Shown here: one piece after another, positions 17,674-47,756 of the stretch
Position numbering within the stretch: the stretch's first letter is position 1
How the letters are laid out: each line of letters starts with the position of its first letter
Virus record (IMG/VR): IMGVR_UViG_3300042868_003477
Span: 1,458-65,457 of that record
Direction: 5' to 3' (one strand)
DNA from: a virus
Lineage: Duplodnaviria; Caudoviricetes
DNA: 64,000 nucleotides
The notes under the pieces: model-generated
Databases searched by the model: none
What the model was told of the DNA's origin: nothing
Seen by the model: the letters and a program-made list of their open reading frames with translations, nothing else
Translations under genes and position numbers: made by a program

Positions 17674-17685
17674 AAAAATCCAACA

Positions 17686-18075: not shown

Positions 18076-18092
18076 TTTTTAAATTAAACAGG

Positions 18093-18126
18093 AAAAGGGT
18101 AAGTAGAAATATTTACCCTTTTTTTT
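18093..18126 (+). terminator. intrinsic terminator
   Basis: AAAAGGGTAAGTA-gaaa-TATTTACCCTTTT plus T run. Confidence 0.85.
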
Positions 18127-18166
18127 ATTAACTTAAATAGGGGGAACAGCTTAACTGAACTATATT

Positions 18167-22587: not shown

Positions 22588-22606
22588 AAGGTTCTCCCTT
22601 TTTTTT
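22575..22606 (+). terminator. terminator at the convergence of the two arms
   Basis: GGGAGAACTT...AGGTTCTCCC stem with T8 run; the upstream stop codon lies in the loop. Confidence 0.8.
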
Positions 22607-25600
22607 ATCTTAAGTTCTCAAAAATCTCTGCTTTTTTGATAGCCCATATAGGACCTGATTCCCATTCACCTGCAGGAGGTATAACATTTTTACCAGATAA
22701 GCCAAATATATTACCAATGTGATTCCATATTTTATAGCTACCTTCTTTTTGCCATGAATAAGGACCTACTTCTTGTTTATATATAGCTTTATCACTACCT
22801 GTTACTATAAGACCTAAATCTGTAACAATCTTAGAATATAAACTTAAAGTTGGACCTACTACAATAGATGATGTTTCTGTAAAATCTAACCATTCATCCA
22901 TACCTACACCTGGAATAGGAATAAAAGATTGATTTTCTCTTTGTACCATCATAAGCTGATATAATGCATGATTTGCTAACCAACCACCAGCACCATATCT
23001 TTCTTGTCTCATTCTCATTTTTTCAAATCTGTCTTCATCTCCTGGATCATAGTCAAATAAATAAGTAACAAGTAAACCTGTAAAAAATAACATCATGCCT
23101 TCTGTAACTACCTCATAAACTTGACCTTTTTCTTCTTTAGTCATTATTGGCCAGTAGTTTCTAGCATCTGTAATTAAATTTTTAGTTGTAGCTAAAAACT
23201 GTATATACTTACCTCTGTTAGCTTCATTTAAATCCCAATCCCAAACTTCACCGAATCTATTCTCTTTAGACATGTCAGCTTGATATCTAGATAAGAACAT
23301 ACCTGTACCAAATTTTCTAGAAAAAGTAAATACATCATATAACAAATATTTTTCTCCAATAGGACTATCTATTTTAGCCATAGTACCATTTAGTTTTTTA
23401 TTTGCTGAAGCCATTCTTCTTTTCATTTCATTAAACTTAGTGTTTCTTGAAATTACTAATGAGTCTCCTACATTTATTTGAGCACTAGGTTTTAAATTAT
23501 TTTTTTTAGCTAACTCATCCACAGACATATTGTATCTTTTTGCTAAAGTAGCAAGAGTGTCTCCAGCTTCAATAGTATGATCTAAGTTCTTAATACCATA
23601 TTCTGGATTAATTCCATCTTTTAGTTTTAATAAACCTTCTTTATCTGTTTCAAAAGCTTCAGCATATCTAATTTCTTTTGGTGTGCCATCTGGTTGTATT
23701 TGTTCAACTGTTTGAAACTCTAATAAACTAAATCCTATATCTAAAGATCCTTGTAATTCAGTTAATTTTCTATCTGAATATAACCAAGCAGCATTTAATA
23801 AATCTTTAACAGCAGTTCTTGATGCTGAATCTGTTGAATTTTTTTCTGCTTTACCTGGAGACATATCAAAAGCATCCATAACTTGTAAGTTAAGACTTTT
23901 TACACCTTTAGCATAAGCTCCTGTAGCAGCATATTCCATAACAGTTTTTGCAGAAGTAATTGTACCTCTAGCCATTGATGAAAAACTTATATGTTTACCT
24001 CCTGCTGCATAAATAAGCTTTTGAAAATCCATACCAAGTTTATTCTTTAATGTTGATACAGGATTCAATGAATAGAATGAAAATCTAGCATTAGACATTA
24101 AACCTCTAATTACTTTACTAATTTTTACATTATCTTGTTCCCATTCACTTACATTTTTACCATAGAAAGTTCTATCAATGTAGTCCTTAGCAAGTTGTAG
24201 TCTTTGATTATTACTTCTTTTTAAAAACATTGAAGCTCCATCCTTAGCTTTAGCAAGTACAGAACTTGCTACATCTAATCTATCTAAAGCATTATTAGGA
24301 TCAGCCAAAGTATTTAAGTAAGCATTAGCAATAGGCTCATATTCAATAAGAGCATTTTGTTTATCAAGAGAATAACCATAAGTCAATAATGATCTAAGAA
24401 TATCTGGAGATACATCATTTACATTCATTTTATATAAACCTCTTACAGGTACCCTTGATATTGGATTACCTTGTAAATCAGTTTTAATATATAGGTGTTT
24501 AGTATCAAAGTTAAGACCTCTTTCAGCATCATCATTAGCACTCATTACCCATGACTTTACATTACTTAAAATATCACTAGACTTGTCCTTAATGTCTTTC
24601 TTTAAATTAGTTGTAGCTAAATATTCTAAATTATCTTGTTTTCTGAATCTAGGAAAATCTAAATACATTCTTGAAGAATATGGTGATTCTTCTTGCATAG
24701 ATAAAGTATCTTTCTTTAATTTTTCTAATAACTTAAACTGAGCATTATTGGAAGCTTTTAATTGATAATATTTTTCATTCATATATTTACCATTAGCGGA
24801 GCCTACAGCAAATTCTTTAGGTAAAAAATTACCTTTATTATCTATATGAACACCAACTTCTAACTCAACCTTTTGAGTTTTAGGATTGTATCCGGTTTTA
24901 TATTGATCTTTTATTTTTGTATATGAATACTTAGCAATGGGTACTCCAGCTCTTTTAAACACTTCACCAGTTGAAGGATCTTTAATTTCTGTAGTTTTAT
25001 AATGTTCTGGATTTGTTGGTTTTGATACACTCCATACTTTTAATCTATAGTATTTAGATATATAACCACCAACACTAACATCATAGATTTCTCTTGAGTA
25101 ATGATTTCTATCAAACCATTCAGCAAATCTTGAGTTTTTAGCTTTAGCCTCTAGTAAGTTAGAAGAATTAATCCAAGACTCAGCATTATCAACATTAACT
25201 TCTTCTATTTTAAGATCACCTAAAGCTTTTGTAAAAGAAGTAATATAATAATCAGTAGCACTAGTTTCTGTTAAATCAGCTAACATTCTGTATAAGTTTC
25301 TAAGATAACTTATTTCTTCAGCTGCCATACCAAAAGCTTTTTTATTAGCTATTAATCCGCTATACTCAGCTTTTTCTTCAGGAGTCATCTCATTGAACTT
25401 GTTTTGAGCTATAATAGATTCCTCATAGTATCTTAACTTTTTAGCTTCTTCTTTTGTTAGTCCTGTCTTTTTATCAAATTGTTCTTGAGCATCTACTATT
25501 TCTAGTTCTATTTGCTTTAATCTTTTAATAGTATCTATACCTAGTTCAAGACCATTAGGTTCTCCATCTTTATCAGTTACCCTATTAACAATATTATATC

Positions 25601-28481
25601 TTTGCTCATATAGGTCTACTAGTTTTTTTGAGGTTTCAGATTCTTTTCCTTTTTCATTTATCTTTTTTATCTCTTCTAGTATTCCCTTTTTACTTTGATA
25701 ATATTCATCTGTATAAGCAATTTTTAGATTTTTATTAAAAAACTTTTCTAACTCTGCTTCATACTGATCCGGTGTTGCATCTTTAGTGACTCCTTTACCA
25801 GCTAATTCTACATTAATAAAGTGATCAAAATCTTGTTGGAATTTTTCATCATTAGTTATAGACTCATTAAACTTTCTTGATTGTTCTCTATGATATCTTC
25901 TTACTAATACTTTTTCTAATTCTACTCCTTGCTTGTATTTGCCATCATTGTCATAAAGATTATACAATTCATTATACTTAGTCTTAACATTTTCTGATGC
26001 AGTAAACTCTAGTAAATCATCTAACTCTGTAAACTCACTTGATGAGTTATAAGTTCTTAAGTCATCTAATGCAGATTTTCTCTCCATATAAGCTTCAAAA
26101 GCTATGTCTTTTGAAATAACTACATCTTTTTTTAATAATGGATTGTATACAGTATTGTCTTTTTTCCAAATATCTTGTACATCATATACTTCATCAGTAA
26201 ATCTACGGTTCATATACACTTTGTTAAAAGTATTTAATTCATCCATAGCTACTTTTATAGCATCTTTATCATTATTATCCTTAGCTTTTTTAAGATTAAA
26301 TTCTAATTTATCTTTATCAGCTCTCCAGTCTTTAAATTTATCTAGAAAAGAATATATTTCATATTCTTTAAACTCTCCATTCTCATCAACTTCACCAACT
26401 TTATCTACAAATAAAACCATTTCAGCTAATTGATTTGGACTATTAGCATTATACCCAACTGCATTTAAACTAGATTTTAAATTTTCAACTAGTTTCATTT
26501 GTTTCTGAAGTGTTGTAACTTCTTGATCAGAAAGTTTATCTCTCATAAACTGAGAGAAAGCTCCAAATAAGTCATTAACATTACCCATAGGGTTCAACAT
26601 AGCACCAGCTGCAGAAACATCTCTTACATGTCCTCTTAGATAAGCATCTACTGAAGCTTCAGTAATCTTATTAGCTTGATAATTTTTTATTGCATTATCT
26701 AGATATTTTTTTGTAGGTAAGGGTTTTGATAATAGATCATTAACATTTATATATTTTGTATCTTCTACATCTAATTTATCAAATAAAGCATTTGTAAATG
26801 TTTCTATCTCTTGTTCTGTATAACCTGATGATTTAAGTATTGTATTTATTTGTTCTTCTAGTTTTGACTTTACATTTTTTTGCATTGGTTCTCCAACTTT
26901 TACAAAAAACTTTTTCATAAAGTCTGCAGTCATATCAGCAGCTGTTTCAATATTATTTTCAATAACTGCTTTTATAGATAATATTTTTTTACTTAACTCA
27001 TTTGCTGGATCTAAACCTAAAATCTTACTAATATCTTTTAAGAATTTACTTTCTCTTTCCATAAACTCTTTAAAGTACTGGATTTTTTGGTTACCTTCTT
27101 CTGTTAAATGCTTGTTTGTTTTCTGTAACTCATTAAAAATGTTATTGATTTTTCTTGCAAACAATTCTAATTCACTAAGACTATTTATAAAAGATAAAGA
27201 TCTTAATTTTAAATCTTGTTCATTAAGTTGTAAAGCTTCAACTAACTTATCTAGCTCTTCATCTGTAAGTTCATCATTATTATTTTTATAACTACCAACA
27301 TAATCTTTTATGTTTTTGATTATATTAATACCATCTTTACCTAATTCTTCTCTTAACTTTTTTGGTGATGTTCTTAACTGTCCTAATTGGAAAGTCATTT
27401 CATCATGAAATCTATTAATAGCATTAACTAAATTTTTTGGCTCAATAGATTTAAGTTCTTTTAAAAAGTCATCAGTATCTTTTTTAAAATCAGCAAACAA
27501 ACTTGCTTGATAACTAAGATCTTCAATGACAAAGTCTTCATTTAACATCATATCTACTAATTCTTCTCTAGTAGTAGTAGTATCAAGCTTACTAAGATTT
27601 ACTTTATTTGTCAGAGCTTTAATTACTTTTTTTATTGCATATAATAAATTTTGTATAAACTTCTGAAATAAACTATCATCATCTTTAATACCTTTAAGTT
27701 TGTTATCAGCATCAATTTCCATTGCTGTTACAATAGCTTCCTCCATAAATCTAGGAGTACCTTCTTCTAACTCAGGATATCTTTCTTTTACAATAGCAAT
27801 TGCATTTTGTCCAGTAGTAGAACTAATCAATTGATCATATAAATTATTAAACAACTTAGGGTTTTGATAAGAAATACCCTTAATTAAGGGATGGGCAAAC
27901 TCATGCATTACATTGTTAGCTGTAAATCTACCAGATACAAAATAAACTTTATTCCCATAATAGAATGCAGATACATTAGGCGCATATGGTGTTGGACTAT
28001 TTTGTAATAGCACAGCAGCTTCAGACGGTGTAATTATTTGATAATCTACCTTAAAAGCTTTTTTAAACTTCTCACCTAGTCTATTAGCAATCTCAATATC
28101 TCTAGATTTATTTAACTGTTCTTTAGTAAAAAACATTTTAGTACCATTACTGTCAAATAAATATTCATCAGTATATTCTTCACCAGCTCTTTTAGCATCT
28201 TCTTTTTGAATCTCTTTTGCCTCATTCTCAGCCATTTGCATTTCTCTCAACTCTATCATGAGTTCACTCTCATAGTAATTATCTACTAATGTCTGTGGTA
28301 TATAGATATCATAATCAGGAGTATCTCCTCTTTCTAAATATATAACAGTATCTTCACCATACTTTTCATTTAAAGATTTTATATAGTTTCTAGCTTGTTC
28401 AGGATTCATAGATAAAGCTTTTCTAGCTTCATTATTAATCATCTCACTTAGAAAATCTTTAATAGCAATTTGACAAGGCAT
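22605..28481 (-). CDS. giant virion cargo protein with N-terminal zincin-like domain and inserted LysM domain
   Basis: HEFAH (27891-27905) with downstream EEA; LysM HTIEAGDTLATLAKRYNMSVDELAKKNNL...INVGDSLVI (~23452-23580); single Cys at residue 3. Confidence 0.85.
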   Translation of the reverse strand: MPCQIAIKDFLSEMINNEARKALSMNPEQARNYIKSLNEKYGEDTVIYLERGDTPDYDIYIPQTLVDNYYESELMIELREMQMAENEAKEIQKEDAKRAGEEYTDEYLFDSNGTKMFFTKEQLNKSRDIEIANRLGEKFKKAFKVDYQIITPSEAAVLLQNSPTPYAPNVSAFYYGNKVYFVSGRFTANNVMHEFAHPLIKGISYQNPKLFNNLYDQLISSTTGQNAIAIVKERYPELEEGTPRFMEEAIVTAMEIDADNKLKGIKDDDSLFQKFIQNLLYAIKKVIKALTNKVNLSKLDTTTTREELVDMMLNEDFVIEDLSYQASLFADFKKDTDDFLKELKSIEPKNLVNAINRFHDEMTFQLGQLRTSPKKLREELGKDGINIIKNIKDYVGSYKNNNDELTDEELDKLVEALQLNEQDLKLRSLSFINSLSELELFARKINNIFNELQKTNKHLTEEGNQKIQYFKEFMERESKFLKDISKILGLDPANELSKKILSIKAVIENNIETAADMTADFMKKFFVKVGEPMQKNVKSKLEEQINTILKSSGYTEQEIETFTNALFDKLDVEDTKYINVNDLLSKPLPTKKYLDNAIKNYQANKITEASVDAYLRGHVRDVSAAGAMLNPMGNVNDLFGAFSQFMRDKLSDQEVTTLQKQMKLVENLKSSLNAVGYNANSPNQLAEMVLFVDKVGEVDENGEFKEYEIYSFLDKFKDWRADKDKLEFNLKKAKDNNDKDAIKVAMDELNTFNKVYMNRRFTDEVYDVQDIWKKDNTVYNPLLKKDVVISKDIAFEAYMERKSALDDLRTYNSSSEFTELDDLLEFTASENVKTKYNELYNLYDNDGKYKQGVELEKVLVRRYHREQSRKFNESITNDEKFQQDFDHFINVELAGKGVTKDATPDQYEAELEKFFNKNLKIAYTDEYYQSKKGILEEIKKINEKGKESETSKKLVDLYEQRYNIVNRVTDKDGEPNGLELGIDTIKRLKQIELEIVDAQEQFDKKTGLTKEEAKKLRYYEESIIAQNKFNEMTPEEKAEYSGLIANKKAFGMAAEEISYLRNLYRMLADLTETSATDYYITSFTKALGDLKIEEVNVDNAESWINSSNLLEAKAKNSRFAEWFDRNHYSREIYDVSVGGYISKYYRLKVWSVSKPTNPEHYKTTEIKDPSTGEVFKRAGVPIAKYSYTKIKDQYKTGYNPKTQKVELEVGVHIDNKGNFLPKEFAVGSANGKYMNEKYYQLKASNNAQFKLLEKLKKDTLSMQEESPYSSRMYLDFPRFRKQDNLEYLATTNLKKDIKDKSSDILSNVKSWVMSANDDAERGLNFDTKHLYIKTDLQGNPISRVPVRGLYKMNVNDVSPDILRSLLTYGYSLDKQNALIEYEPIANAYLNTLADPNNALDRLDVASSVLAKAKDGASMFLKRSNNQRLQLAKDYIDRTFYGKNVSEWEQDNVKISKVIRGLMSNARFSFYSLNPVSTLKNKLGMDFQKLIYAAGGKHISFSSMARGTITSAKTVMEYAATGAYAKGVKSLNLQVMDAFDMSPGKAEKNSTDSASRTAVKDLLNAAWLYSDRKLTELQGSLDIGFSLLEFQTVEQIQPDGTPKEIRYAEAFETDKEGLLKLKDGINPEYGIKNLDHTIEAGDTLATLAKRYNMSVDELAKKNNLKPSAQINVGDSLVISRNTKFNEMKRRMASANKKLNGTMAKIDSPIGEKYLLYDVFTFSRKFGTGMFLSRYQADMSKENRFGEVWDWDLNEANRGKYIQFLATTKNLITDARNYWPIMTKEEKGQVYEVVTEGMMLFFTGLLVTYLFDYDPGDEDRFEKMRMRQERYGAGGWLANHALYQLMMVQRENQSFIPIPGVGMDEWLDFTETSSIVVGPTLSLYSKIVTDLGLIVTGSDKAIYKQEVGPYSWQKEGSYKIWNHIGNIFGLSGKNVIPPAGEWESGPIWAIKKAEIFENLR

Positions 28482-28495
28482 AATATTCTTTTATT

Positions 28496-28512
28496 TAAAT
28501 ATACTAATTTTT
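28496..28512 (-). promoter_or_regulatory. candidate late-promoter element AAATTAGTATATT
   Basis: Shared with the intergenic element at 54520-54535 (AAATTTAGTATATT). Confidence 0.35.
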
Positions 28513-31500
28513 ATTTACAACTAGATGAAGATCTTGGAATTCCTGGTAAACCTTCTGGTTTATTTTCATCAGATACTTCAGGTTGTATAGGCTCATCTCT
28601 TTTCATTTCTGGTGTCTCTGGTTCAGTCGGATCAGTTTCAGTTTCTTCAGAAGTTTCTTCAGCAAGAGGTCCTCCTGGAACTAAAGCTAATAATGCTTGA
28701 ATTTCTGGTGAATCTGCTGCTAATATTTCTGGAACTAATTCTTCTGATTGAACTCTTGATAAACCATTTCTATATAAAGTAGGTTCAGATACATAATTTT
28801 TAAATGCACCTTTTGAATCTATAAGTCTTTTATATATTAAATCTAAGGTAGCTCCATTTAAATTATTTGTCTTAAATATATCTGCAGCATTCTGCATTAC
28901 GCCTATATAATCTTCATAAGGCAATGCTTCAACAAAACCATACTTACTATAGCCAATACCATGTTGATAAATCATCATGTTTGGTAATAGACTGAATAAT
29001 TTACTTATTCTTTTATTATCTTCCTTGTCAGTTGATTTTACTACATCAATATTTGCAAGATCTTTAATGTTAGTATAGTAAACTTCTGCTAACTGTGGAT
29101 CCTTTAACATCTTGATATCATTAAGACTTAGTACAGATTCACCTGATTTAACTTTTGGTTTAGTTAATTGAGCAAGTATTGGATATTTGTTTTTTAAATT
29201 AGGAAATTCTTCTATCATATTAAGTACCATATCTGTATAGGAATTGTTTGGTAATCCCATTATGGCTTGTCTGTTAAAACTATTTATTAAAGCTCTTTGA
29301 TTCAGGTATTTTTCATAAGCTACTTTATTAGCTTGTTCTGGATCTTTATTATATTTTTTAGTAAGACTGACAAATTTTAAATAATCTTTGTTTGTTTCTA
29401 AAGATTCTATTGGATACAAAAATCTTTGATACTCTCTTTCAATAGAATATTTAAAATACATTGACTCATTAGCAAAGAGGTTGTCTTGTGCTCTAAAGCC
29501 TTGTAAACCAATTTGATTGTAAGCAGAAGAGTCTGTATTATCTCTTAGGTATAAACCTTCACTATATTCTTTACTTAATCTTTCTTTATCTATAAGTATA
29601 CTATCTGCAGTTACTTCAACACCATTTTTAACCCCAGTTTTTTCAATTACTTTTTTCTCTTTATATTCTGAAGGCATGCTTGTTACTTGACCATTTTCAT
29701 CAAGCATATTTGTCATGTAATTCTGGAATATATAATTTGGTATAGCATTTTTAAATTCAGTAATAAATCTTCTTGCACCATCTTGACCAGAACCAAACTT
29801 AGATGTAATACTAGCTTGTCTAGTTTTTATAGCATTGATAATATAATTAGTAACTGTAGCATTATTTCTTAATGGGAAAACAGGTACAATCATATCATTA
29901 ATTAACTGATTATCAAAGAAAGGTCCTAATATAGATTCCATTACTTTATCAACTAAACCTTTTGGTAATTTAGACATCTCTTTAGTTTCTTCTAAAGATA
30001 AGTTTCTATTGATTATTTCTTGTAAAGTTTTAGATGTTTTTGTGTCAGGATTAGACTGCATTTTTAATGTTGTAAATCCTTTAGACATTTTTTCTAGTTC
30101 AATAAAATGCAAGAACATAGCTTTAGCATATTCTCTATTTTCAGGATTAGATAAATTTCTGTCTTTAATTACAGCCATCATCTTATCATAATCAAAATTA
30201 CCATCTTTTTCTAGTATACCACTATTAACTACAGTTGTAGTAACAGCATTATAATAACCAGAATTAGATACAAGACTTTTCTTACCTTTTTTTAGACCAA
30301 ATTTATTTAAAGTATTTTCAGCAGCTTGCCATTTAGTTGCTGTTTCTTTAAAATCTTGTGGTATTTTTTTAGTTAATTTAGCATAAGCACTACCAATTAA
30401 CCTTTGTTCTTTTGTATAATCTCTTACAAGAGGATTTGATACAAAAGCAATTGCTAATTCTTTTGGTACACCTGCTTTAAGTAAAAATGTAATCATAGGT
30501 ACTGTTTCATAGTTACCCTGAATAAAAGATATCCAAGCGTCTTTTTCAACATCCACGGCACCATTCATAAACTGAGAATATAAGTCTGCAATTTTATCTA
30601 CACCAAAGACATCATCTGTACCTGAAAGAGAAACAGCACCTTCTGTTGTTTCATTATGTGGTAAAAACAATCTTACATTATAATCTTCATCAGTATCTAC
30701 ATATCTATTTAATTGGTCATCAAAAGTTGAAGCCTTATAAGTCTTTGGTAAAGAAGCACCTACTGAATTAAATATTGGGTGCAAAGAGTTTTCTACTGCT
30801 AACATACCTAATACATTTTTACCAACCATATTTACATCATGTTTATGTAAATTGTAAGCTGCTTCAAGTATTCTACTAGGACTAATAACCTTTTGTCCTT
30901 TTAAACCTTTTTTAGTATTCTTATCATGTGTGTTTTTAAATCTGTTGTACTCAATTACATCATCCTGTAATTCATCAGCAAGATCATCTTTTAATAAGTA
31001 TGTATCATTTGGTCTAACTAAGTTAGCATAGTTATCTGGTAACTCTAATATACCTTTGATAGATTGAATTAATTCATTCTCTAAGGCAGCTTTTTGAGTT
31101 TTGATAATATTTACTGCTGTTTTTTTTCCGGCTTCAGTTTGATTAAGCTCTTTTACTTTAGTTGCTACAGCTTGGTTTGACATACCAGATTCTACAAACT
31201 TACCAAAACTATCAATAGTAGGCATGAATGTAGTTAATTTATCAACGTCAAAGTCACCCCCTGATTTTGCAACAATCTCTGTAGGAGGAATAATAATATT
31301 ACCTGCAGCAGGATCTAGAAATTCATATACTTCCATAAACTCCATTGAGTTTAATCCTTGTACTGGAATCCTTACAGCTGATAGAGTAACAGATTTTCTA
31401 TGGTTACCTTTATCTAACCATACATCATCTTTAATCATATCATTAAGTCTAGCTCTTGTACCAATTACTTCACCATCATTATGTTTAAGTTTTAGTAAGT

Positions 31501-37500: not shown

Positions 37501-38260
37501 TCATTAAGAATAACTCATCAGGAGTAGTAACATTAGCTTGAGCTTTATTTATTTTATTTAAATACAAAGCTCTATTTAATAACCTAGCTGTAGATTTATC
37601 TAACATCTCTGCTGGAATATCTGACAATCTAATTGGTTTTAGATTAAGCTTTTTATTTTGATACATAATACTTTTTAAAGAAGCATTATTATCCATATTA
37701 GCTTTAATAGCTTTTAAAGTATTATATATAACTTTTCTACTACTGTCTAATGTTTCTAATTGTTCAGCATTGTTAGGATCTACTTGTAAAAATTCTTGAA
37801 AAGTTGTAGATATAGCTGAGTAAGGTTTATAGTCTAAAGGATCTTTTACTATATCATCTCCTGTCTTCTCTTCAATAACAAATGCTTTTTCTTCAGTCTT
37901 TGCAATTAACTCTGCTTTAACTGCAGGATTAGAAATAGGATCAAAATATTTAACTACATTATTTAAACCTTGATCTTCATTTTTAAAAGATTTAATTAAA
38001 GGTCTTAAATTATCTGTTTTAATATCTAAATCTCCAAGAGAAGGTCTGAATGAAGCTGTACCAATTAAAGTAGGAATTTGTTGTAAAAACTTAGCTGCTG
38101 TGTCGGCATCTTTTGCTCCAGCTATTTTATTAAATAGATCTGTCATATAAGTTTTAGTGTCAAACTCAACACCTTTTTTTATACTATCAATCATGTGACC
38201 ATACACATGAGCATATAATTTTTCAATCTGAGATTGGCTTAAAGCACAAGTAATTTTCAT
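28511..38260 (-). CDS. virion-packaged single-subunit two-barrel RNA polymerase (crAss/phi14:2 gp66-type) with zincin-like domain
   Basis: RIPVQG, GGDFDVDKL (31241-31255), DGQGFIT, VDVEKD; HEAWH (35729-35743) plus EEILAEDF; Cys only at residues 5 and 3248. Confidence 0.9.
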   Translation of the reverse strand: MKITCALSQSQIEKLYAHVYGHMIDSIKKGVEFDTKTYMTDLFNKIAGAKDADTAAKFLQQIPTLIGTASFRPSLGDLDIKTDNLRPLIKSFKNEDQGLNNVVKYFDPISNPAVKAELIAKTEEKAFVIEEKTGDDIVKDPLDYKPYSAISTTFQEFLQVDPNNAEQLETLDSSRKVIYNTLKAIKANMDNNASLKSIMYQNKKLNLKPIRLSDIPAEMLDKSTARLLNRALYLNKINKAQANVTTPDELFLMIMTDQGGQPVYFSENGDISTMEDGGKLVYQFLREVRKDSKGYRVTDIYGKTDTILSPRAIADAINRKNELSKEAYEELVKDIYKTQQQEFKELYDFKQSLLKGETPLVNITDISNGISEYAPKAINLSTLSEIVDNPEYVMSTITTIKSGRSSFSKGEAVIQLKGSEYKIDRPNLTDDLIKKIAAVLVNPNISKNDRYDFVTQFLSEKASDATRKHVLSYLPNTDTLVFSYSPTSYQEGYASKFTTVNLESSTAQEEIYNALKNASGKDGKYFSAKMTYNAALLKNMQYQDYNLDTNTIDDFYSSYSILLSTLPNTKLFINLDVKSRSFNSYMYFALPNEITKQINEAEEDETEIIRDDFFENQVPEDEQSPTLGVIETKERVVELLKEGYPLKGIISKPASSRTRWELTTKKGNVVEFYNKEQNITEEDLTQEATLHLVPNIITEQGDVFKDPVQVRIGNKNIGYVRATKDFTTKPVVKKSIEEIEAEINNIIAPDNTPSPEEDGAGDIFFYRSENLPSDVSQEQIDEAKKWWGNSPLNKYIDLKQVANIVNSNAYARFIKHGSVLNGNLGTIELAKKGSMVDVYHEAWHGFTQLFLTKAEKKALYKEVQGRLGGNKTFFEIEEILAEDFRTYAKNPKAKKNSPKQNSLFRRILNFIKSLFGKGSVTDVTEIGTVAEMFDKLYLGKDLNNYTPLVDNVMFDVLERNSGIVEPGTQDVQVLNRQDSNLLKESMDSLISDLVDEQNSVSNDKSKSLGILLDSRNREPLYKFIKIKLTAKLKSLKEDLNKLENTEETEETEIKKDLLNNRIRILQAGIDNYGNTDSGTVAYHVLNSSFDLIRQKYINLELDEEGNLFNPSAGTETERYGDKKVGDKSLIELAGKETLYLLKSLHAVNDKGQFEYNELGFKKLADFRSTWNNTVRTLSGLQDPKDMYDAIIEESVSVPVFKQLLSKLPNPNTSNNIFEFKITTSFWQDFNKPRVPYIQLTIFGTPQMSNQLDKNGNPIPVVTESDTPVYDFSVAVTDASIDASNAIKTFQDKFKGDTKNTFVDRIGKDNIPTLNLEKVVSTFSNTKGTLDEAQSFDFARAIGISLDDNPIIKSVLKKDTKAIEKFGLPYLFDAISEMHSKEKLSTTPYNVRTVINEFKTDPVGMFIKGIPEGIAGKGVINQKTQLNNLAELQVRYGSEGSNFGVFNAERNLVFEHIDNHSISKQVYGLNAAKKLSDLWTDDSLSYMSYLDPTINSYTKKLGVIRSLFDVNSSQQLKRQNKSLKLFMDSGTQYDANISAEGKNTTSLDVNSKMLQEINTMLKGGVQEFMRHASKSSSFGAYVDGGVVPQPGKKGDDNQLWVDIDMFDKNTAGEYALKAHILPYMEGEADRIFRFRQNKDEYKNYAGYNRKIGDGKMAGEVFTIFDDLLSSSVKEEIYAAIDKAIEEKTNFDLKTFVSTNPKGIMDRIRANVKESFKDQTELNYSLFSESKYLSPDLYERFKKSDKTEEEIEKTLIEAYTYNAWIHNFEMGILFYGDFVQYNHDKEEMHKRNTGSTSGGPGYRTDKDAQRFINDYVANTSYAASLKNDDIQPISYDGTYTTAILQDIERDSVYVNQIEKGLRADYEKRYAKTNVSKAEIDRRVAKEVKKFTGMEEGDGQGFITFDGYRTLNILQNNWSNAQEILFQKVVEGLDISAGDVTEMFPVLKAQNFGPLASKIGETRLTGLPITAMHKFALAPLIPSVVRDSDLQSLHEQMMKSGVQYVTFQTGSKVGSVTSNGKPDKIYDDSEQKSLKKDIKFTPNVVHLEYLKNVTSVPNKYKGKTVFATQLRKLILGDMYRNGEIINSKNEPAVKRYETAVKGYSNILKLELLNEIGYEYNPETKKYSGNLDNFLDVVQAELDRKDLPEHLIQLVGLNRDKSLKTDLSLHLKADEIEKILVSLVEKRLIKQKVKGEALVQVSSTMSNGLWDRKFKNSTEADVRKYMGTNNLPFYNNETTDGKTSAMKIAIALQGDFYNLLKLKHNDGEVIGTRARLNDMIKDDVWLDKGNHRKSVTLSAVRIPVQGLNSMEFMEVYEFLDPAAGNIIIPPTEIVAKSGGDFDVDKLTTFMPTIDSFGKFVESGMSNQAVATKVKELNQTEAGKKTAVNIIKTQKAALENELIQSIKGILELPDNYANLVRPNDTYLLKDDLADELQDDVIEYNRFKNTHDKNTKKGLKGQKVISPSRILEAAYNLHKHDVNMVGKNVLGMLAVENSLHPIFNSVGASLPKTYKASTFDDQLNRYVDTDEDYNVRLFLPHNETTEGAVSLSGTDDVFGVDKIADLYSQFMNGAVDVEKDAWISFIQGNYETVPMITFLLKAGVPKELAIAFVSNPLVRDYTKEQRLIGSAYAKLTKKIPQDFKETATKWQAAENTLNKFGLKKGKKSLVSNSGYYNAVTTTVVNSGILEKDGNFDYDKMMAVIKDRNLSNPENREYAKAMFLHFIELEKMSKGFTTLKMQSNPDTKTSKTLQEIINRNLSLEETKEMSKLPKGLVDKVMESILGPFFDNQLINDMIVPVFPLRNNATVTNYIINAIKTRQASITSKFGSGQDGARRFITEFKNAIPNYIFQNYMTNMLDENGQVTSMPSEYKEKKVIEKTGVKNGVEVTADSILIDKERLSKEYSEGLYLRDNTDSSAYNQIGLQGFRAQDNLFANESMYFKYSIEREYQRFLYPIESLETNKDYLKFVSLTKKYNKDPEQANKVAYEKYLNQRALINSFNRQAIMGLPNNSYTDMVLNMIEEFPNLKNKYPILAQLTKPKVKSGESVLSLNDIKMLKDPQLAEVYYTNIKDLANIDVVKSTDKEDNKRISKLFSLLPNMMIYQHGIGYSKYGFVEALPYEDYIGVMQNAADIFKTNNLNGATLDLIYKRLIDSKGAFKNYVSEPTLYRNGLSRVQSEELVPEILAADSPEIQALLALVPGGPLAEETSEETETDPTEPETPEMKRDEPIQPEVSDENKPEGLPGIPRSSSSCK

Positions 38261-38263
38261 ATC

Positions 38264-41200
38264 TTAACAATCTAAATCATCTAATAATTCTTTATCTAAG
38301 GTATCTGTTGTTTTGTTCATAGATGCCTTTTCAATTCTATCTAACTCTCCGTCTTTATTTTGTATTAAGCCTTCAATAAGATCTATTGATTTATCTACCA
38401 TAGATTTTTCTGCTGATGTGGTAGGTGTTTCTGTTGGATTAGTTGCTCCCATTATTACTTCTTTAAGATTAAATAAAAGATTTAAATTATTAAAACTTAT
38501 TTCTTGTTTTGCAGAAGTACCTAGATTAGAGACAGTTACAGTTTTTGCAACTTCATTTATTGACTCTATAATTACTGTATCATTTTCCTTAGCAAATACT
38601 TCATTTGTAGGTGTAAAGATAGTAGTTTTTGCAACAAATTGAGAATCCTTTTGTAAAGATGTTGGTACAATTTTTATAGCATTGTTATCAATGTCTTGTT
38701 TTTTAGCCATCATCAATTCAGACATTTTCTCTAAATTATCAAAAGCAATATTTCCTTCAATTACCTTACTCTCTAATAAGTCTTTAAGAGCTAATAAGCC
38801 ATCCATGTCATTGACTTTATCTAATTCTTTTTGGAAATCAGTTAAATCAAATTCAGTTTCTGGACTAATATAAGCATTGTCTATATCAGGACTTTCTGTT
38901 GGAGAAGCAGTATCATCAGAAGACTCTGCATCAGTAGGTACTACTGAAGCTGGTTCTACTACTATAGAACTTAATGGTGCATTAGGCATTGGTATAATAG
39001 AGTTAATTCTATCTTGTACATCAGCTTTACTTAATGCAATTAAGAAATCAGAAGATAACAAAGTTGGACTAGTTGGTTTACCAGCAGATGTTATTCTACC
39101 TGTTTCTTTTTCTCTTGTCATTTGAACTGGTAATAAAGCTATGTTAGGATTAACACCAATCATTCTATTTAATAGATTAGCATATGCAGTTTGTTGTAAC
39201 TGATAATCCTCCATCTTAGAATTAGCATTGTTCTTTTTCTTAAAGTTATCCCACTTAGATTTCTCACCAGTCTTAACATCCACAATAGTAATGTTACCTG
39301 AAGTATCAGCTACAAGTAAATCTATTTCTCCTGCAATCTTTAATTCTTTGTCAAATACTCTAATACCTTGAGAAACAACATATATCTCACCATTGTCAAC
39401 TCTTTTCTTAAGAGCTGTTAAGAAACCTTTTTCTCCAAATAAATCATCAAATGCTTCTTGCGTAATATTTTTTTCATTGAATTCAATTGGTTTATCTCCT
39501 TCAAATAATCTTTTGATTTGCTCATCTATGTAGTTACCAGAGATTCTAGACTCTTCATAAGTTTTTTCAGATACTACTTGCTGTATTTTGTTTAGTAAAT
39601 CTTCACTTGTTAGCTTAGATTCTGTTGTATATAATTCATCAGTAAGTTCTTGTTGTAACTCATTATATGTAAACTCACTAAAGCCAGATAAACTTCTACT
39701 TCTAAGTTCTTGAATGAACTCATTAATATTAATTCCTGTTAAAGGAGTACTACCAATAGTTAAGTAAAAAGCAGTAGCTACATCTTTAGCATTAGTATAT
39801 TCATACTTATCTCCTTTTAACTCTTGGATTACTCTTGTTACTCTTTTATAGACTTCACCATCAATCATATAACCAGCAGGAGATTGTTCAATTTCTCCTT
39901 GCTTATCTTTTAATTCTTGTATCTTGTTAATAGCTTCCTGTAGCTCAGGAGTCATTCCTTTTTTAGCTCTGGTTGCAATTAACTTTTCTAGATCATTAAC
40001 AACTATAGTATAGTTATTTTTGTTGGCAATGTCTTCTGCTGTAGGTTCTTTAATAGCATTAATATCTTTGATTAATGTATTTAACCTTCTTTGGAATACT
40101 CTTAATTGAGGTAAACTTTTAGTACTAGTGTCAATTTGTTTACCTTGATAAACAAACTTAAAATCTTCTTTTTCACCTAGTTCTTTGGTTGTCTCTTCTA
40201 GTTTTAAAGATTTATTGTAATCTTCAATTATTTGTTTAGCTTCTCTATCTGATTGTAAAAACTTAATGAATACATTCCTCATCTTTTCAGCATCAAAACC
40301 TAGTTCTATATCTTCTTCCTCTGTAAGTTTTGATAAATATTTTTTATCAAATAACTCATAGAGTTTATTATATAGTACTGGATCCATATCTTCTGGTGCA
40401 GTATCACTAGATACTATAACAGGTTCTTTAGATGTAGGTGCTTCTGCTTTTCTATTATTAAAATCATTAATTATTTGCTCTCTATATCTTTCAAACTTTT
40501 CTTCTATAGGTTTAACTAACTCTGGATCTGGTTCTTCTCTTAATGTGTATACTCTTGCTTTAGTAAATTCTATTGCAGCTGTAGTAGGATCAAATTCAGC
40601 ACCTTCTTTTGAGTCTAATCTAAGAGTGCCGTCCGTATCCATATAAAATATTAATGGAAATTCTCCACCATATTCTACTTCAGCAAAAGAATCAGGTACC
40701 ATAATCTCTGGTAACTTAGTAAATGGAATATCTAAACCATCTTTAGATTCTAAAGTATCAATAGTTTTTTCTACTTCTTTTTTAGGTAAAGCATCAAGAG
40801 CTTCTTGTTTTTGTTCTTCAAGTTTATCTAATAGTCTTTTTAATTCAGCATCTAAACTCTCAGGTAAATTAGTAGTAGGCTCATCTTTTATTTCAGAAGC
40901 TTGTTCAAACAACATATAATACTCTTCATACTGTTCTGTTCCTTCAGGAATAATCATTTTTGATTCATGATCATAGAACTCAGAAGGTGGGGTACCATCT
41001 TTTTTCCAAGCTTCAAAGTCTTCTAAGCTAATATAAATACCTTTGTTTGCAAGAGCATTTAACAAAGCATTATCAACTACAATTCCAAATTCATCTTTAA
41101 CTATTTTTTCATAGATAGAACCTCTTCTAGCATACAAATCCTTCATCCATTTTCTATTTCTATCTACTAAGTCTAAAAATCCTCCTGGATCATGTAAAAG

Positions 41201-44104
41201 ATTTACATATTTCATTATCTGTTTAGCTTCTGAATCTAGTTTTTGATGGTCAGCTAATAAATTAAAAGACTCATCTAAATTTTTATCAAATACAAAGTCA
41301 TCACTAAGACCTGCAATAGTTTTTAAATAATCTCTGTAAGCTCCTTCATATTCAGAAAACTTTTCTATTTTGTTATCTTCTGTAAAGTCTCCAAAAAATT
41401 TATTTAATACTTCATCTACTTCTTCATCAGTTACAGGAACATCACCTTTTTCTTTTTGCAATTCTTCTTTTACAAGACCTGCTTTTTCATATCTATTAAA
41501 AAAGTTTCTGTACTTAGCTGTAGACTCTGCCAATTTTTCTAAAGCTCCTAGTTTTCTTTTTTTCTTTTCAAGATCTTCTCTAGTTCTTTCATCAAGTTCT
41601 AAACCATCAATTACCTTTACTTGATCTTTTAATAAAGCTATTTCATTTTTTAACTTACCATAATCAAATAACACTTCTGCATCTGATTGAGTCATGTTTT
41701 TAAATGGTTTTTTTGTTATGAAATTTTGTAATACATCTGCTTTTCTCTGCATAGTATAGTCAAAAGTCTCTCCAAAATAAACAGCATTTTCTGTAGCTTT
41801 ATTCCAAGCATGATGTAATGCTACAGCATCTTCATACTCAGGTGTATTTTTTGGAGGTAAATTTTCTTGAGTAATGGGATTAGGAAATTTTTCATTATAA
41901 AAATTATATCTTTTCTCAATACTTTTAGTTTTGTTTATTACATCATCTATCTTAGTAAGATATTTTTCTCCTTCACCTTTTGGTATGTTTGGAATATTTT
42001 CTTCTAACTCAGCAGGTGTTAATTGTTTCAAGTCTTCTAACTTAACTCTAAACATATCTAAGCCACCTTTTTGAATTAAGGTATCCATTTGTTTTAGAAA
42101 AGCTTCATCTGTAGCATCTATTGCTTCTTTTTTACTGCCTGTTTCTTTAACTCCAGCTACTAAGTCTTGAACACCATAATTAAAAGGTCTAGCATTTAAG
42201 AATTCATTTATATCAATAGAATTTAGATTACTAACTAAATTCTCCATTATAGCCGTTTTTTGTTGTTTAAACTCTCTGTAACCTTCTTTGTTAAACAGTT
42301 TATTATAACCTGTTGATAAAAACTCTACACTGTTATTAATAGGAGAAGCTATAGCCCCCATTGCAAAACCAGAAGCAAATGTTTCAAAACCTCTACCAGT
42401 TAACTGATTTCTTGCTTCTTCTTTAAAAAAATCTAATTTAGATTTATTAGCTAAGCTGTCTACAGCTTTAGAATATATATTTGATTTAAGAGCTGGACTA
42501 TCAAATGTATCTGTATAATATTTTTCATTAGCTCCTGATACAATTTCTTGCATACTTTCTTGAACACCTTCAGAGAAGTTTCCTTTAAAGTAGCCAACAG
42601 TATTTTTAGCAGATTTATATATAGGTTGTCTACCCCAATCTTTTACATAATTAATAAAATTATTTTTCTTAAAATTAAATTCTTTTTTACCTTGATCATA
42701 TACTACAGAACCTAGTTTACCAAATTTACCACTAGATACTTGTTGAAGTTCTTTAGCTGTATTTCTCATAAAGCTAGGTATACCACCTTTAGGACCAACT
42801 ATATTTGGAAATGTAATTGCATTACTTGCATATATTAAAGCTGTATTCCATTTAAGTGTACTTAATGATGCTTCTTTAGATTGTTTAAACATATCATATT
42901 GAACATCATTATCAGGAGCTTTACCGTTATCTCTATAGTATTTATTATAAAGGTTATCATATACTTGATTTTCATTCATCCCGGCTTCTAGTCTAGCCTC
43001 AGATAGAGCCATGTTTATACTTCTTACATCTTTATAAAAACCTCCTGCTGTTTTATAAGCTTTAGCAAGGTTTGTTAAATTATATAATTGATCACCTTTT
43101 TTTACAGTTTCACCAAGACCTTTTACAGCATAAGCTGTATTTTGAAAAGGACTTAAAGAACCTGTACCAGTTCTTTTAGCTGCTTCCCAAAACTTTCTAG
43201 CATTAGACACACTTTCTACACTTTTTAAAGTTGTGTTTACAGCCTTATAACCATCTACAGCCATGTCAATTCCTTTAACGGCTCTAGCTGTATTTTTTAA
43301 GAAATTAGCTGATGTTAAAAAGAAACTTCCTCCTAATGTTTCAGGGGCAAGTAATACACCAAGTGCTTCTTCAGTAATAGCTTCTGCCATAATACCTGCA
43401 GAATAACCAAAGTTCATTACTAAATTATTTGTAAATCCAAAGACTCCTCCTTTACTAGATTGACCAATAGCTGCTGCACTAGTATAAGCTTCAGCATCTT
43501 CAAGATCACTAGAAGTAAAGTCTCCTTGAAGCATTTTACCCATACTTTTCCAACCACTTCCAAAACCTCTACCAAATAAAGGTATGAAAGAATGTTTCAT
43601 CATTCTAGAAAAGTCATCTACTTTACTAGTTCTAGAGTTAAATAAAGCTTCATTATCTCTTAGTGGTGAGAAACCTATCTTATCAAAAGCTTCTTGTCCA
43701 TATGCATTATATCTTTTATAAAAAGCATTACCATCAGGACCAGCATCATAAGAATATATTTTTGCATAACTATTAGTATCCTGATTACTTTGTACCTTAG
43801 CTTGGATATCACTACGCAAAGCATTCTTAATATCTTGAAAATTAGCATTTTTAGGTACTCCTGTTTTATTAGGAGGTTGCTGTACTAATGTTTTTCTTAC
43901 ATTTTGTTGAGGCTGACTTAAACTATCTAAGCCAGGTAATGTAGGAAAAAATCTATCTTGTGAAGGAAAGTTTATTTTAGGTGTAGAAATCTTATCTCCT
44001 TCAAAAGCTGCTAAACCTTTACTATCAATTGTAGGAGCATTAATTCTACCATACTCTGGTCCTAAAGGATCTAAAGAATTAAAACCATCATTAGTACTTG
44101 CCAT
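38264..44104 (-). CDS. giant virion cargo protein with C-terminal PD-(D/E)XK nuclease domain
   Basis: Start at ATG 44104 (MASTND); Gly/Ala-rich amphipathic N-terminal region; IAGEIDLLV...IVDVKTG...YQLQQTAYANLL; only Cys is the last residue. Confidence 0.85.
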   Translation of the reverse strand: MASTNDGFNSLDPLGPEYGRINAPTIDSKGLAAFEGDKISTPKINFPSQDRFFPTLPGLDSLSQPQQNVRKTLVQQPPNKTGVPKNANFQDIKNALRSDIQAKVQSNQDTNSYAKIYSYDAGPDGNAFYKRYNAYGQEAFDKIGFSPLRDNEALFNSRTSKVDDFSRMMKHSFIPLFGRGFGSGWKSMGKMLQGDFTSSDLEDAEAYTSAAAIGQSSKGGVFGFTNNLVMNFGYSAGIMAEAITEEALGVLLAPETLGGSFFLTSANFLKNTARAVKGIDMAVDGYKAVNTTLKSVESVSNARKFWEAAKRTGTGSLSPFQNTAYAVKGLGETVKKGDQLYNLTNLAKAYKTAGGFYKDVRSINMALSEARLEAGMNENQVYDNLYNKYYRDNGKAPDNDVQYDMFKQSKEASLSTLKWNTALIYASNAITFPNIVGPKGGIPSFMRNTAKELQQVSSGKFGKLGSVVYDQGKKEFNFKKNNFINYVKDWGRQPIYKSAKNTVGYFKGNFSEGVQESMQEIVSGANEKYYTDTFDSPALKSNIYSKAVDSLANKSKLDFFKEEARNQLTGRGFETFASGFAMGAIASPINNSVEFLSTGYNKLFNKEGYREFKQQKTAIMENLVSNLNSIDINEFLNARPFNYGVQDLVAGVKETGSKKEAIDATDEAFLKQMDTLIQKGGLDMFRVKLEDLKQLTPAELEENIPNIPKGEGEKYLTKIDDVINKTKSIEKRYNFYNEKFPNPITQENLPPKNTPEYEDAVALHHAWNKATENAVYFGETFDYTMQRKADVLQNFITKKPFKNMTQSDAEVLFDYGKLKNEIALLKDQVKVIDGLELDERTREDLEKKKRKLGALEKLAESTAKYRNFFNRYEKAGLVKEELQKEKGDVPVTDEEVDEVLNKFFGDFTEDNKIEKFSEYEGAYRDYLKTIAGLSDDFVFDKNLDESFNLLADHQKLDSEAKQIMKYVNLLHDPGGFLDLVDRNRKWMKDLYARRGSIYEKIVKDEFGIVVDNALLNALANKGIYISLEDFEAWKKDGTPPSEFYDHESKMIIPEGTEQYEEYYMLFEQASEIKDEPTTNLPESLDAELKRLLDKLEEQKQEALDALPKKEVEKTIDTLESKDGLDIPFTKLPEIMVPDSFAEVEYGGEFPLIFYMDTDGTLRLDSKEGAEFDPTTAAIEFTKARVYTLREEPDPELVKPIEEKFERYREQIINDFNNRKAEAPTSKEPVIVSSDTAPEDMDPVLYNKLYELFDKKYLSKLTEEEDIELGFDAEKMRNVFIKFLQSDREAKQIIEDYNKSLKLEETTKELGEKEDFKFVYQGKQIDTSTKSLPQLRVFQRRLNTLIKDINAIKEPTAEDIANKNNYTIVVNDLEKLIATRAKKGMTPELQEAINKIQELKDKQGEIEQSPAGYMIDGEVYKRVTRVIQELKGDKYEYTNAKDVATAFYLTIGSTPLTGININEFIQELRSRSLSGFSEFTYNELQQELTDELYTTESKLTSEDLLNKIQQVVSEKTYEESRISGNYIDEQIKRLFEGDKPIEFNEKNITQEAFDDLFGEKGFLTALKKRVDNGEIYVVSQGIRVFDKELKIAGEIDLLVADTSGNITIVDVKTGEKSKWDNFKKKNNANSKMEDYQLQQTAYANLLNRMIGVNPNIALLPVQMTREKETGRITSAGKPTSPTLLSSDFLIALSKADVQDRINSIIPMPNAPLSSIVVEPASVVPTDAESSDDTASPTESPDIDNAYISPETEFDLTDFQKELDKVNDMDGLLALKDLLESKVIEGNIAFDNLEKMSELMMAKKQDIDNNAIKIVPTSLQKDSQFVAKTTIFTPTNEVFAKENDTVIIESINEVAKTVTVSNLGTSAKQEISFNNLNLLFNLKEVIMGATNPTETPTTSAEKSMVDKSIDLIEGLIQNKDGELDRIEKASMNKTTDTLDKELLDDLDC

Positions 44105-47100: not shown

Positions 47101-47195
47101 TTAGTCTGCAATACATTACCATAAAAATTTAAATCTGGTTGAAAAGGTTGCAACTGAGGTATAAAGTCTGTCACATTTTGTAAATACGTGGCCAT
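44091..47195 (-). CDS. virion cargo/ejection protein
   Basis: 1034-aa Cys-free ORF in the cargo block; N-terminus with QPFQPDLNFY and a coiled segment. Confidence 0.75.
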   Translation of the reverse strand: MATYLQNVTDFIPQLQPFQPDLNFYGNVLQTKQTQYDTNWKALNKMYGQYFNADLTRDDNIKKKDDYLNNVEFQLKRVSQLDLSLEQNVTQATQIFKPFYEDKGLMKDMAWTKNFNNQYGMAQSYKGAYDDKQRAKYWDVGLREMDYMKDEFKTASSSDAMSFGNVQYTPYVNTIKEAQKLAKDAGLSIETVDFSHEGGAQEGKWIVKTKNGEQLIEPLQKLFESQLGSDPGIQAVYKTQSFVNRKDYAYSNAAQFGGDKEKAEMKYLEDSFTVLKDRAVQRYNQLKDVSTAYDKKIKDLEKQKEEGKGTKEIDDLLKAYTTNKGINDKVLSRAEQDNEMINGDQSKTVTTSTGFQNPYGDIKSLRYKVDNGMASMLMQKDLDEAANIFAYKDAKQDIDANPYAVLADKHKYSMQQISARNAGLERAARIRNAGDEKNMINKARLEAGTHRIDENGQVIPIEGLNDTFVIPNDKGTSTDRLNLKEVSSKIARMRTDQYATPYLSNTVALIQKFMKQGTMTKAQATEILGYSRFKNISLDKFSEKLNGSNSYGFITSEIGTKDLAQIRNKMSTWISQNGQLSGFQGQEYDNYKQSAINFSDYTNYLKANKDFLKESGKIVENEVVRKFGEKARHLYDTDGNLNTKEEYVNSLTKGANKSKSSDRNIKLIQLKDVSSKLSNIYDEYMTGTSKNLVEYAAATKRAKSDPRVQELLEKKRDIQKAIGGTNLVEINSVARDYDEMVREAGKVYSSNKVSKTSNPLPGLDQLGEMTGTGLFTSGVTGTFVNPKAVHTKGNIQFGQLVRDIEKIDWGSTNKNRVTFDGISKTAFDKRAEEGFRNDAGISILNAIRAEMMKPKTKMGNFKIGVAPIAGGSVNKAAMIIYPDSEWLKGYVYNKNKDGDLTTPGIISTEQYNLIMKNGISYIADSKELSNDLYTSSFNSPLASYVDYYGSYTYSDPANPNYKLQIEKNKIGTGDYNVSMNYPLWNPEEGKYEMITDYNNTTYHGNNLERIRKEFATDYTPKINNLNTQLQNGKY

Positions 47196-47197
47196 GA

Positions 47198-47692
47198 TTA
47201 TTTAAAATTTAAATTTGCATATATTCCTACATATAATGCTGCAGCTGCATCATATGCTTTTGCTGCCTCAATTTCTGTAATATATCTTTTAGTTAATACT
47301 CTTTTACCATTTACCATTAGTTGAGCATTCCATTTATTTCTTGCTTTATCATAAGTAACCCCTAAGTATTTAGATGAACTGTTTTTGTGAGAAGAAGTAT
47401 TTCTATTATTTTCTGCTTTAGTACAAATTCTTAAATTACTTTTTTGATTGTTTAAAGAATTACCATCTATATGATCTACAACTAAATTAGAATCATTACA
47501 TCTCATAATTACTCTATGTAAAAAAACTTCATATTTTACTCCTGATTTTAATATACTTTTCTTTTTAGATCTTTTTACATAAAATTTATTTTTAATAAAT
47601 ACAGCATTCCAATTCCATTGGCTTAACCAATAATAATCTTCATCATCTACTGTTGTATAAATGTTATTACCTAAATATAAATCCTTTGCCAT
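47198..47692 (-). CDS. free-standing HNH-AP2 homing endonuclease
   Basis: LHRVIM, VDHIDGNSLNNQKSNLR, SKYLGV...KWNAQ...EAAKAYDAAA...ANLNF. Confidence 0.9.
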   Translation of the reverse strand: MAKDLYLGNNIYTTVDDEDYYWLSQWNWNAVFIKNKFYVKRSKKKSILKSGVKYEVFLHRVIMRCNDSNLVVDHIDGNSLNNQKSNLRICTKAENNRNTSSHKNSSSKYLGVTYDKARNKWNAQLMVNGKRVLTKRYITEIEAAKAYDAAAALYVGIYANLNFK

Positions 47693-47714: not shown

Positions 47715-47756
47715 AACTATTAAAATTTTATAAGTTTATTAAACTTAAAATGTTTA
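47715..47756 (-). promoter_or_regulatory. candidate late promoter/operator (17-bp near-palindrome plus AT-rich element)
   Basis: TAAACTT-aaa-ATGTTTA at 47740-47756 plus an extra half-site at 47731; same layout as 54520-54563. Confidence 0.4.

Follow-up and report, generated by a model that had tools for sequence, protein, structure and literature searches.

Cysteines confined to facing protein ends in the RNA-polymerase module of a distant crAss-like phage suggest a disulfide-linked cargo thread

The module described here lies in a window of 64,000 nucleotides (nt) of the IMG/VR virus record IMGVR_UViG_3300042868_003477 (Duplodnaviria; Caudoviricetes), from position 1,458 to position 65,457 of the record. 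It is composed of three giant genes of the minus strand, named C, B and A in the order of the chain, whose products contain only four cysteines (Cys), each located at an end that faces the neighbouring protein of the module. This terminal pattern is confirmed as real and far beyond chance. Its best reading, and a rather probable one in view of the sequence patterns and of a structural model, is that tail-to-head disulfides join C, B and A. The original prediction, made from the sequence alone, had given coordinates and residues for the four terminal Cys, and all of them were correct in the open reading frames (ORFs) and codons. The genes and the Cys codons are the following.

38264-44104, minus strand: gene C, 1946 amino acids (aa) from its ATG, first link of the module, sole Cys as last residue
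28511-38260, minus strand: gene B, 3249 aa, middle link, predicted virion RNA polymerase (RNAP), Cys at both ends
22605-28481, minus strand: gene A, 1958 aa, last link, HExxH (zincin-like) motif and LysM, sole Cys at residue 3
44091-47195, minus strand: gene D, 1034 aa, Cys-free, directly upstream of C, used as internal control
38267-38269, minus strand: TGT codon of Cys1946 of C, last residue
38246-38248, minus strand: TGT codon of Cys5 of B
28517-28519, minus strand: TGT codon of Cys3248 of B, penultimate residue
28473-28475, minus strand: TGT codon of Cys3 of A

The start of C was placed at the ATG at 44104, which is the homologue start in locus L003, rather than at the longer TTG start at 44155; the Cys count is the same with both. 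The three proteins contain four Cys in 7153 residues, against about 80 expected from the rest of the window, where the other ORFs display 119 Cys in 10,024 residues (1.19%, a background that leaves out six Cys-free or near-Cys-free cargo ORFs). If four Cys were placed at random, the probability that all of them fall at most 5 residues from the four inner termini would be about 6e-11. Three proteins of the same strand block contain no Cys at all: D (1034 aa) and the products of 49947-54503 (1518 aa) and 54561-56363 (600 aa). A depletion of Cys relative to the rest of the proteome, by which Schitoviridae-like ejection proteins are recognised, is thus found in the window, and it is also found in its relatives. 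The premise of the original prediction that ejected proteins of the N4 type lack Cys is in print, in the accessible text of PMC11445570.

Three relatives from IMG/VR, at 50-60% identity, possess the same four Cys although the flanking residues differ. A profile of the catalytic region of B recovered 80 IMG/VR loci (29-73% identity), in which plus-strand ORFs of at least 200 aa were called from the first ATG and every successive pair was listed. After removal of the duplicates and addition of the window, 135 unique junction rows were obtained. A pair was counted when a Cys was present within the last 12 residues of the upstream protein and another within the first 12 residues of the downstream protein. 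Both Cys are present in 130 of these 135 rows. In L024 (4790-5000), one of the exceptions, a frameshift or an assembly error occurs about 60 codons into B and the real N-terminus MVNC is visible; in L048 the start was miscalled and MKVTC follows the second Met; in L032 the downstream ORF is unrelated and lies 1851 nt away; finally, L088 provides two junctions upstream of a lone giant gene. In the 130 complete junctions the C-terminal Cys is at distance 1 from the end in 57 cases, 2 in 35, 3 in 26 and 4-10 in 12, and the N-terminal Cys is at position 3 in 52 cases, 4 in 36, 5 in 33, 6 in 7, 8 in one and 11 in one. The residues that extend beyond both Cys amount to a median sum of 4 (range 2-14). 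Among 204 unique proteins (448,463 residues), 267 Cys are located in the terminal zones and 23 elsewhere (0.005%).

The alignments reveal that these Cys are conserved where little else is. When the final 200 aa of 55 C homologues are aligned (mean column identity 19%), the terminal Cys is the sole invariant column; for 55 B homologues, aligned over their first 200 aa (mean column identity 24%), it is Cys5. At the other boundary, the final 200 aa of 56 unique B-type proteins have a single column conserved at 90% or more, the penultimate-type Cys, and in the first 200 aa of 56 unique proteins encoded downstream of B this single column is Cys3.

The termini that carry no Cys are equally regular. 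A second scan, seeded with D, yielded 80 loci spanning the D/C boundary, where two Cys-free ends are adjacent and the genes often overlap; none of the 50 unique D/C junctions has a Cys within 12 residues on either side. In complete C proteins a Cys was observed at the N-terminus in 0 of 35 and at the C-terminus in all 35. Among the complete proteins that are last in the chain, 32 of 34 are devoid of a C-terminal Cys, and the remaining two reach the edge of the locus, beyond which another gene may lie. Since both the D/C junctions and the outer ends are Cys-free, the Cys mark only the inner boundaries of the C-B-A module. Outside this module, gp30 of Fpv3 (L095; 598 aa, in a gp45/46-type position) has its sole Cys at residue 5, and in crAss002 (L089) gp30 has its sole Cys 8 residues from the end while the muzzle-type gp29 also has a Cys at -8. 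These Cys may represent further terminal links beyond the RNAP module, or chance.

The identity of the three proteins is supported by the following features.

39107-39616, minus strand: PD-(D/E)XK nuclease domain of C (Pfam PDDEXK_1 PF12705, E 3.3e-6, residues 1497-1666)
31241-31255, minus strand: DFDVD catalytic motif of B, at residue 2336, kept in the catalytic-region alignment of relatives
23451-23579, minus strand: LysM domain of A (PF01476, E 4.7e-11, residues 1635-1677)

The protein C also has a PHROG exonuclease match. In A, the HExxH motif is found at residue 193, and the N-terminal domain gives a hidden Markov model (HMM) match at residues 43-252. With tblastn (22-26% identity), B matches cr108_1 (E 5e-21), phi14:2 g066 (9e-9) and crAss001 gp50 (1e-8), and by this similarity it is assigned to the crAss-type two-barrel RNAPs as a homologue of gp66/gp50. 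The original labels therefore hold: a nuclease (PD-(D/E)XK) for C, LysM and HExxH for A, and an RNAP for B, which has the DFDxD motif and the gp66/gp50 match. By position and Cys pattern, C is the equivalent of crAss001 gp47 and phi14:2 g067; A is the counterpart of phi14:2 g065 and crAss001 gp49. The neighbourhood is that of a Crassvirales RNAP module, with a zincin-type partner downstream, a second giant partner upstream and the gene order of phi14:2. A muzzle-like structural protein of 1859 aa and other virion proteins are encoded upstream of the module, and replication genes occupy the plus strand of the window. A megablast of the region against the phage collection gave no match, and Pfam and PHROGs gave none for B, D and the Cys-free proteins of 1518 and 600 aa. 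The window comes from a distant, uncultured crAss-like phage, and C, B and A would be its packaged and ejected RNAP module, packaging and ejection being assigned by homology. Virion packaging of the homologues was established by mass spectrometry for phi14:2 and crAss001 only (PMC10172136 for crAss001, in its accessible text).

In 13 named phages, fused forms included, the number of Cys pairs equals the number of gene boundaries. The arrangements observed in these phages and in the IMG/VR loci are listed below.

Three genes, phi14:2: Cys as last residue of g067; Cys3 and penultimate Cys in g066; Cys3 in g065; no other Cys
Three genes with the C-type gene on the opposite strand, crAss001, cr128_1, cr85_1 and bajarodcaudo virus 1: gp47-type Cys at -3/-4; N-terminal Cys of the RNAP at 3-5 and its C-terminal Cys at -1 to -9; gp49-type Cys5
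C and B fused, cr118_1, cr50_1, cr1_1, cr130_1, cr7_1, Fpv3 and cr108_1: N-terminus without Cys; the boundary that is left has one pair
B and A fused, crAss002: gp32 Cys at -2; gp33 without C-terminal Cys
Four or five genes, L015, L019, L022-L024, L042, L077, L078, L081, L085 and L086: a pair at each extra boundary
One gene, L088 (5002-aa giant, 3713-18721): no terminal Cys and no chain partners

The C and B fusions were inferred from the position of the DFDxD motif, which is shifted inwards by about 1700-1950 residues relative to unfused RNAPs. In L085 the chain comprises five proteins. In crAss002 gp33 the annotated start puts the Cys at residue 35, and the internal Met33 gives MSC. The opposite-strand C-type gene keeps its C-terminal Cys, so that the signal is at the level of the protein and a DNA-level junction signal is excluded. 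Since the number of pairs equals the number of boundaries and the two pairs are independent, self-closure of B is likewise excluded as a conserved role. The original prediction had expected that the terminal Cys would be conserved and paired in homologues and would follow gene splits and fusions, and the 130 of 135 rows and the 13 named phages bear this out in full.

The split sites themselves were compared in a few loci. The alignment by Blast of split with unsplit A did not cover the split regions. For the 252-aa middle piece of L022, only the C-terminal half aligns, to the C-terminal end of B of L017, and the first piece of L085 aligns to residues 929-1281 of the unsplit, Cys-free C of L083. 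These two alignments give partial support to the view that split sites are not Cys when internal. The open-ended ORF of L013 (>5687 aa) was considered as a fusion of B and A and was dropped, as Blast of the end of B and the start of A of L012 gave no match to it. Neither the HMM of the C-terminal 200 aa of C nor that of the N-terminal 200 aa of B recovered the named phages.

Several other peculiarities of these genes were recorded. The giant of L088 contains an RNAP region and a Dda/PIF1-type helicase, with an ART-PolyVal match below the cut-off; the fused protein of cr118_1 also ends in a helicase. Within the clade, B has a highly modular C-terminal part, and its length varies between 3192 and 5256 aa. 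In bajarodcaudo virus 1 (L094, 16905-25088) the RNAP gene is interrupted by an endonuclease gene, coding sequence (CDS) 91, and in cr108_1 (L007, 21797-22088) by a gap of 290 nt followed by a continuation with a TTG start; both interruptions look like introns or similar inserts. The Cys pattern can be used as an annotation rule: it has corrected starts (crAss002 gp33, bajarodcaudo CDS 89, L048) and has flagged the L024 frameshift.

The junction between C and B was modelled as a complex of the last 200 aa of C with the first 200 aa of B, using our own alignments. The segments involved are the following.

38267-38347, minus strand: end of C (about residues 1920-1946), which in the model docks onto the start of B
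38186-38260, minus strand: start of B (residues 1-25), which in the model is clamped by the end of C

The C/B model obtained a score of 0.84, against 0.18 for the best of three controls; the mark is reached by 58 of 80 solved complexes and by 2 of 110 mismatched pairs, counts that are rough given our own alignments. The runs share at least 56% of contacts, and the partner predicted local distance difference test (pLDDT) value is at least 62. The confident interface involves residues 174-200 of the C piece (197-200 included) and residues 1-25, 37-74 and 93-108 of B; within 1-25, the residues listed are 1-7, 9-18, 20-22 and 24-25. The best-defined pairs are residue 190 of the C piece with B 18/21/22 and residue 194 with B 11/14/15/17/18, which indicate antiparallel helices in the model. 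If this helix register is extended, residue 200 of the C piece, the Cys, would come near B 4-8; this putative proximity of the two Cys follows from the interface lists and the register. Sequence searches of the PDB brought up 6VR4, which is gp66 alone, and hits at chance level, but no comparable solved complex, which makes it unlikely that the model reproduced a known structure. The model supports binding of the tail of C to the head of B, short of showing it.

The mechanism that we propose can be described as follows. Like other ejected phage proteins, C, B and A would have been purged of Cys, apart from one close to each end that adjoins another member of the module. The C-terminal tail of a protein would dock on the N-terminal head of the one that follows, and the two thiols would form a disulfide. 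The product, C-S-S-B-S-S-A, would be a linear covalent thread whose side stubs total about four residues, the disulfide counterpart of the polyprotein that other crassviruses make from one fused gene. The original prediction proposed that such a thread could fix stoichiometry as well as ejection order. We suggest that the Cys are terminal because a disulfide at this position gives an almost linear chain. A covalent link would survive partial unfolding in the tail channel, as no other kind of link would, and the pieces would therefore be kept together and in order during ejection; the reducing cytoplasm would then release them. The LysM and zincin domains of A suggest a role at the cell wall, and A could leave first. 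A passage of the literature shows that covalent continuity is compatible with function. Taken as a whole, the proposal is that Crassvirales and related Bacteroidota phages would build a functional, redox-cleavable polyprotein of about 0.7-0.8 MDa, which would pass the tail in a fixed order and be released in the cytoplasm as active enzymes, and whose genes could be cut or fused freely provided that each new boundary gains a Cys pair. For this complete scheme we consider the chances to be evenly balanced.

Other explanations of the pattern were weighed against the disulfide thread, and two of them concern what the thiols do and with whom. The facing Cys could be free thiols at a docking joint, where they would share a metal ion or form a thioether, a nitrogen-oxygen-sulfur (NOS) bridge or a transient thioester; the pairing statistics and the docking model are compatible with this, as they need only thiols that meet and do not specify the bond. 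We hold it to be unlikely. Each terminus provides one Cys, which is the sole invariant residue, without a second conserved ligand; His is found within 12 residues of a Cys in only 5 of the 130 junctions; and the three or four conserved Cys or His ligands of a metal site are not found, two thiolates alone making a poor site for Zn or Fe. With one Cys per end, no other conserved residue and rare His, a metal site is improbable and a disulfide is the simplest bond. Disulfides are, in addition, documented in crassvirus virions (accessible text of PMC10172136). The Cys counts alone leave the partners unfixed in three-gene modules, and the particle is believed to contain each protein in several copies ("for example, 6 copies", same text), so that homodimers of the same protein, or a B closed from N- to C-terminus with C bonded to A, can be imagined. 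This, too, appears unlikely: in two-gene modules only the junction partner remains, the fused C and B proteins of cr118_1, cr50_1, cr1_1 and Fpv3 keeping a C-terminal Cys without an N-terminal one, and crAss002 having a C-terminal Cys in its C-type gene and an N-terminal Cys only in its fused B and A. Homodimers also leave unexplained why Cys are gained jointly on both sides of a boundary and never at the outer ends or at D/C, and the model docks the tail of C on the head of B. The co-variation expected of an inter-protein disulfide, with Cys on both partners present or absent together, is what the junctions display.

Two further explanations were weighed. The codons could be by-products of a nucleotide-level junction signal (translational coupling, promoter or terminator) or of the start-codon context, without a role in the protein. 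The tight spacing in the window (3 and 29 nt) and the fact that almost all codons are TGT agree with such a signal; however, a TGT bias is expected at about 30% guanine-cytosine content, TGC replaces TGT at homologous sites, the spacing of the junctions extends from an overlap of 32 nt to a gap of 540 nt, the Cys offsets vary, the pair is kept where the C-type gene is encoded on the other strand, and D/C, a junction just as tight, is without Cys in 50 of 50 cases. We regard it as very improbable. Tolerated drift or chance, by which Cys would be purged from the folded interior and survive at floppy ends, would agree with the weaker constraint usual at termini. It is hardly credible when Cys is the single invariant residue amid freely varying neighbours, when the outer termini and those of D never carry it, and when 267 terminal Cys are opposed to 23 internal ones. 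A split intein or trans-splicing was rejected: the Cys lie 1-10 residues from the C-terminus and 3-11 from the N-terminus, which leaves no room for intein fragments, and nothing but Cys is conserved at the termini. The N-fragment of an intein has about 100 aa and starts with Cys, and the C-fragment has about 35 aa or more before the +1 Cys.

Several points weigh against tail-to-head disulfides. Virions are assembled in a reducing cytoplasm, and the habitat of gut phages is anoxic. The bond itself, its timing (in the virion or in the periplasm) and its purpose are proposed from sequence patterns and a model. The docking is a prediction with our own alignments for the C/B junction only, and the proximity of the two Cys in it is indirect. 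The 160 IMG/VR loci were found with patterns derived from the window, so that its clade is over-represented, and for the other families the evidence comes from 13 named genomes, with a re-read start in two (crAss002 gp33 and bajarodcaudo CDS 89). Depletion is not absolute, some Suoliviridae (cr130_1, cr7_1) having many internal Cys. Finally, the accessible text of the crAss001 atlas (PMC10172136) reports no cargo disulfides: "cysteine" occurs 0 times, and its seven mentions of "disulfide" all concern structural parts (tail, portal vertex).

Further observations concern these and other families. In cr130_1 and cr7_1 (L096, L097) the cargo CDSs, as annotated, are broken under table 11 by 11-148 in-frame stops, a sign of stop-codon recoding; internal Cys are much more numerous there than in other lineages, and the terminal pair is kept. 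The RNAPs of Steigviridae, unlike those of the window's clade, have one or two internal Cys at matching places: 1334 in crAss001 gp50 (L004), 1366/1439 in cr128_1, 1331/1404 in cr85_1 and 1341/1414 in bajarodcaudo virus 1. In cr108_1 (L007), cr128_1 (L091) and bajarodcaudo virus 1 (L094) the annotation places thioredoxin-type genes at a distance of a few kb from the RNAP block, and a link to the redox chemistry of the cargo is possible; no thioredoxin-like protein was found among ten small or Cys-bearing ORFs of the window that were scanned. In the window, two other minus-strand genes lie among the Cys-free cargo genes. One (47754-49937) encodes a protein of 727 aa without Pfam or PHROG match, with six Cys at residues 375-462 that include two CxC motifs (439/441 and 460/462); its homologues in relatives have 4-12 internal Cys, and it is possibly a metal-binding, non-ejected protein of the virion. 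The other (47198-47692), inserted between cargo genes, encodes a protein of 164 aa with HNH_3 and AP2 domains, of the homing-endonuclease type.

Among the closest known systems are other ejected RNAPs. The N4 RNAP has a T7-like fold, to which the fold of the crAss phage enzyme is unrelated. The latter is two-barrel (10.1101/2020.03.07.982082, accessible part). N4 gp50 and DEV gp71/72/73 resemble the crassvirus module, as a giant virion RNAP and companions that are ejected and almost Cys-free. The accessible text of PMC11445570 links the suppression of Cys in N4-like ejected proteins to passage through the oxidising periplasm, and describes the DEV proteins as essentially without Cys and reports no terminal pattern, whereas the crassvirus proteins have one Cys per facing end. 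Among crassviruses, gp65/gp66/gp67 of phi14:2 and gp47/gp49/gp50 of PhiCrAss001, homologues or positional equivalents of A, B and C, display the identical Cys pattern. In the virion of PhiCrAss001, inter-subunit disulfides are present in the gp57 dimer (47-47 and 25-88) and between the tail hubs and R1/R2, according to the accessible text of PMC10172136; they show that Cys brought together in crassvirus particles oxidise. They staple fixed structural parts, whereas the proposed bonds would join mobile ejected proteins end to end. The same text argues that the crAss001 cargo unfolds partly to pass constrictions of <50 Å, and that its exit order "is likely to be controlled" by packing and mutual interactions.

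Single bonds with comparable tasks exist elsewhere. In translocated proteins of the AB type, one disulfide keeps two chains joined while they pass a narrow pore, and cytosolic reductants then cut it. Mucins and von Willebrand factor are end-to-end disulfide polymers, linear covalent chains made through terminal Cys. These proteins are unrelated to the module and act in another setting, and the likeness would be one of mechanism only. In the phi14:2 preprint text, "cys" and "disulfide" occur 0 times, and full-text searches of the literature, subscription-only papers and supplements being outside their reach, found no description of terminal Cys in crassvirus cargo.

Crassviruses are the most abundant phages of the human gut, and they move several very large proteins through a narrow tail. 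A covalent link that can be read from the sequence and is conserved provides a concrete hypothesis for the passage of this cargo. If it is true, infectivity would depend on the redox state, and the free interchange of split and fused gene forms in these phages would be explained.

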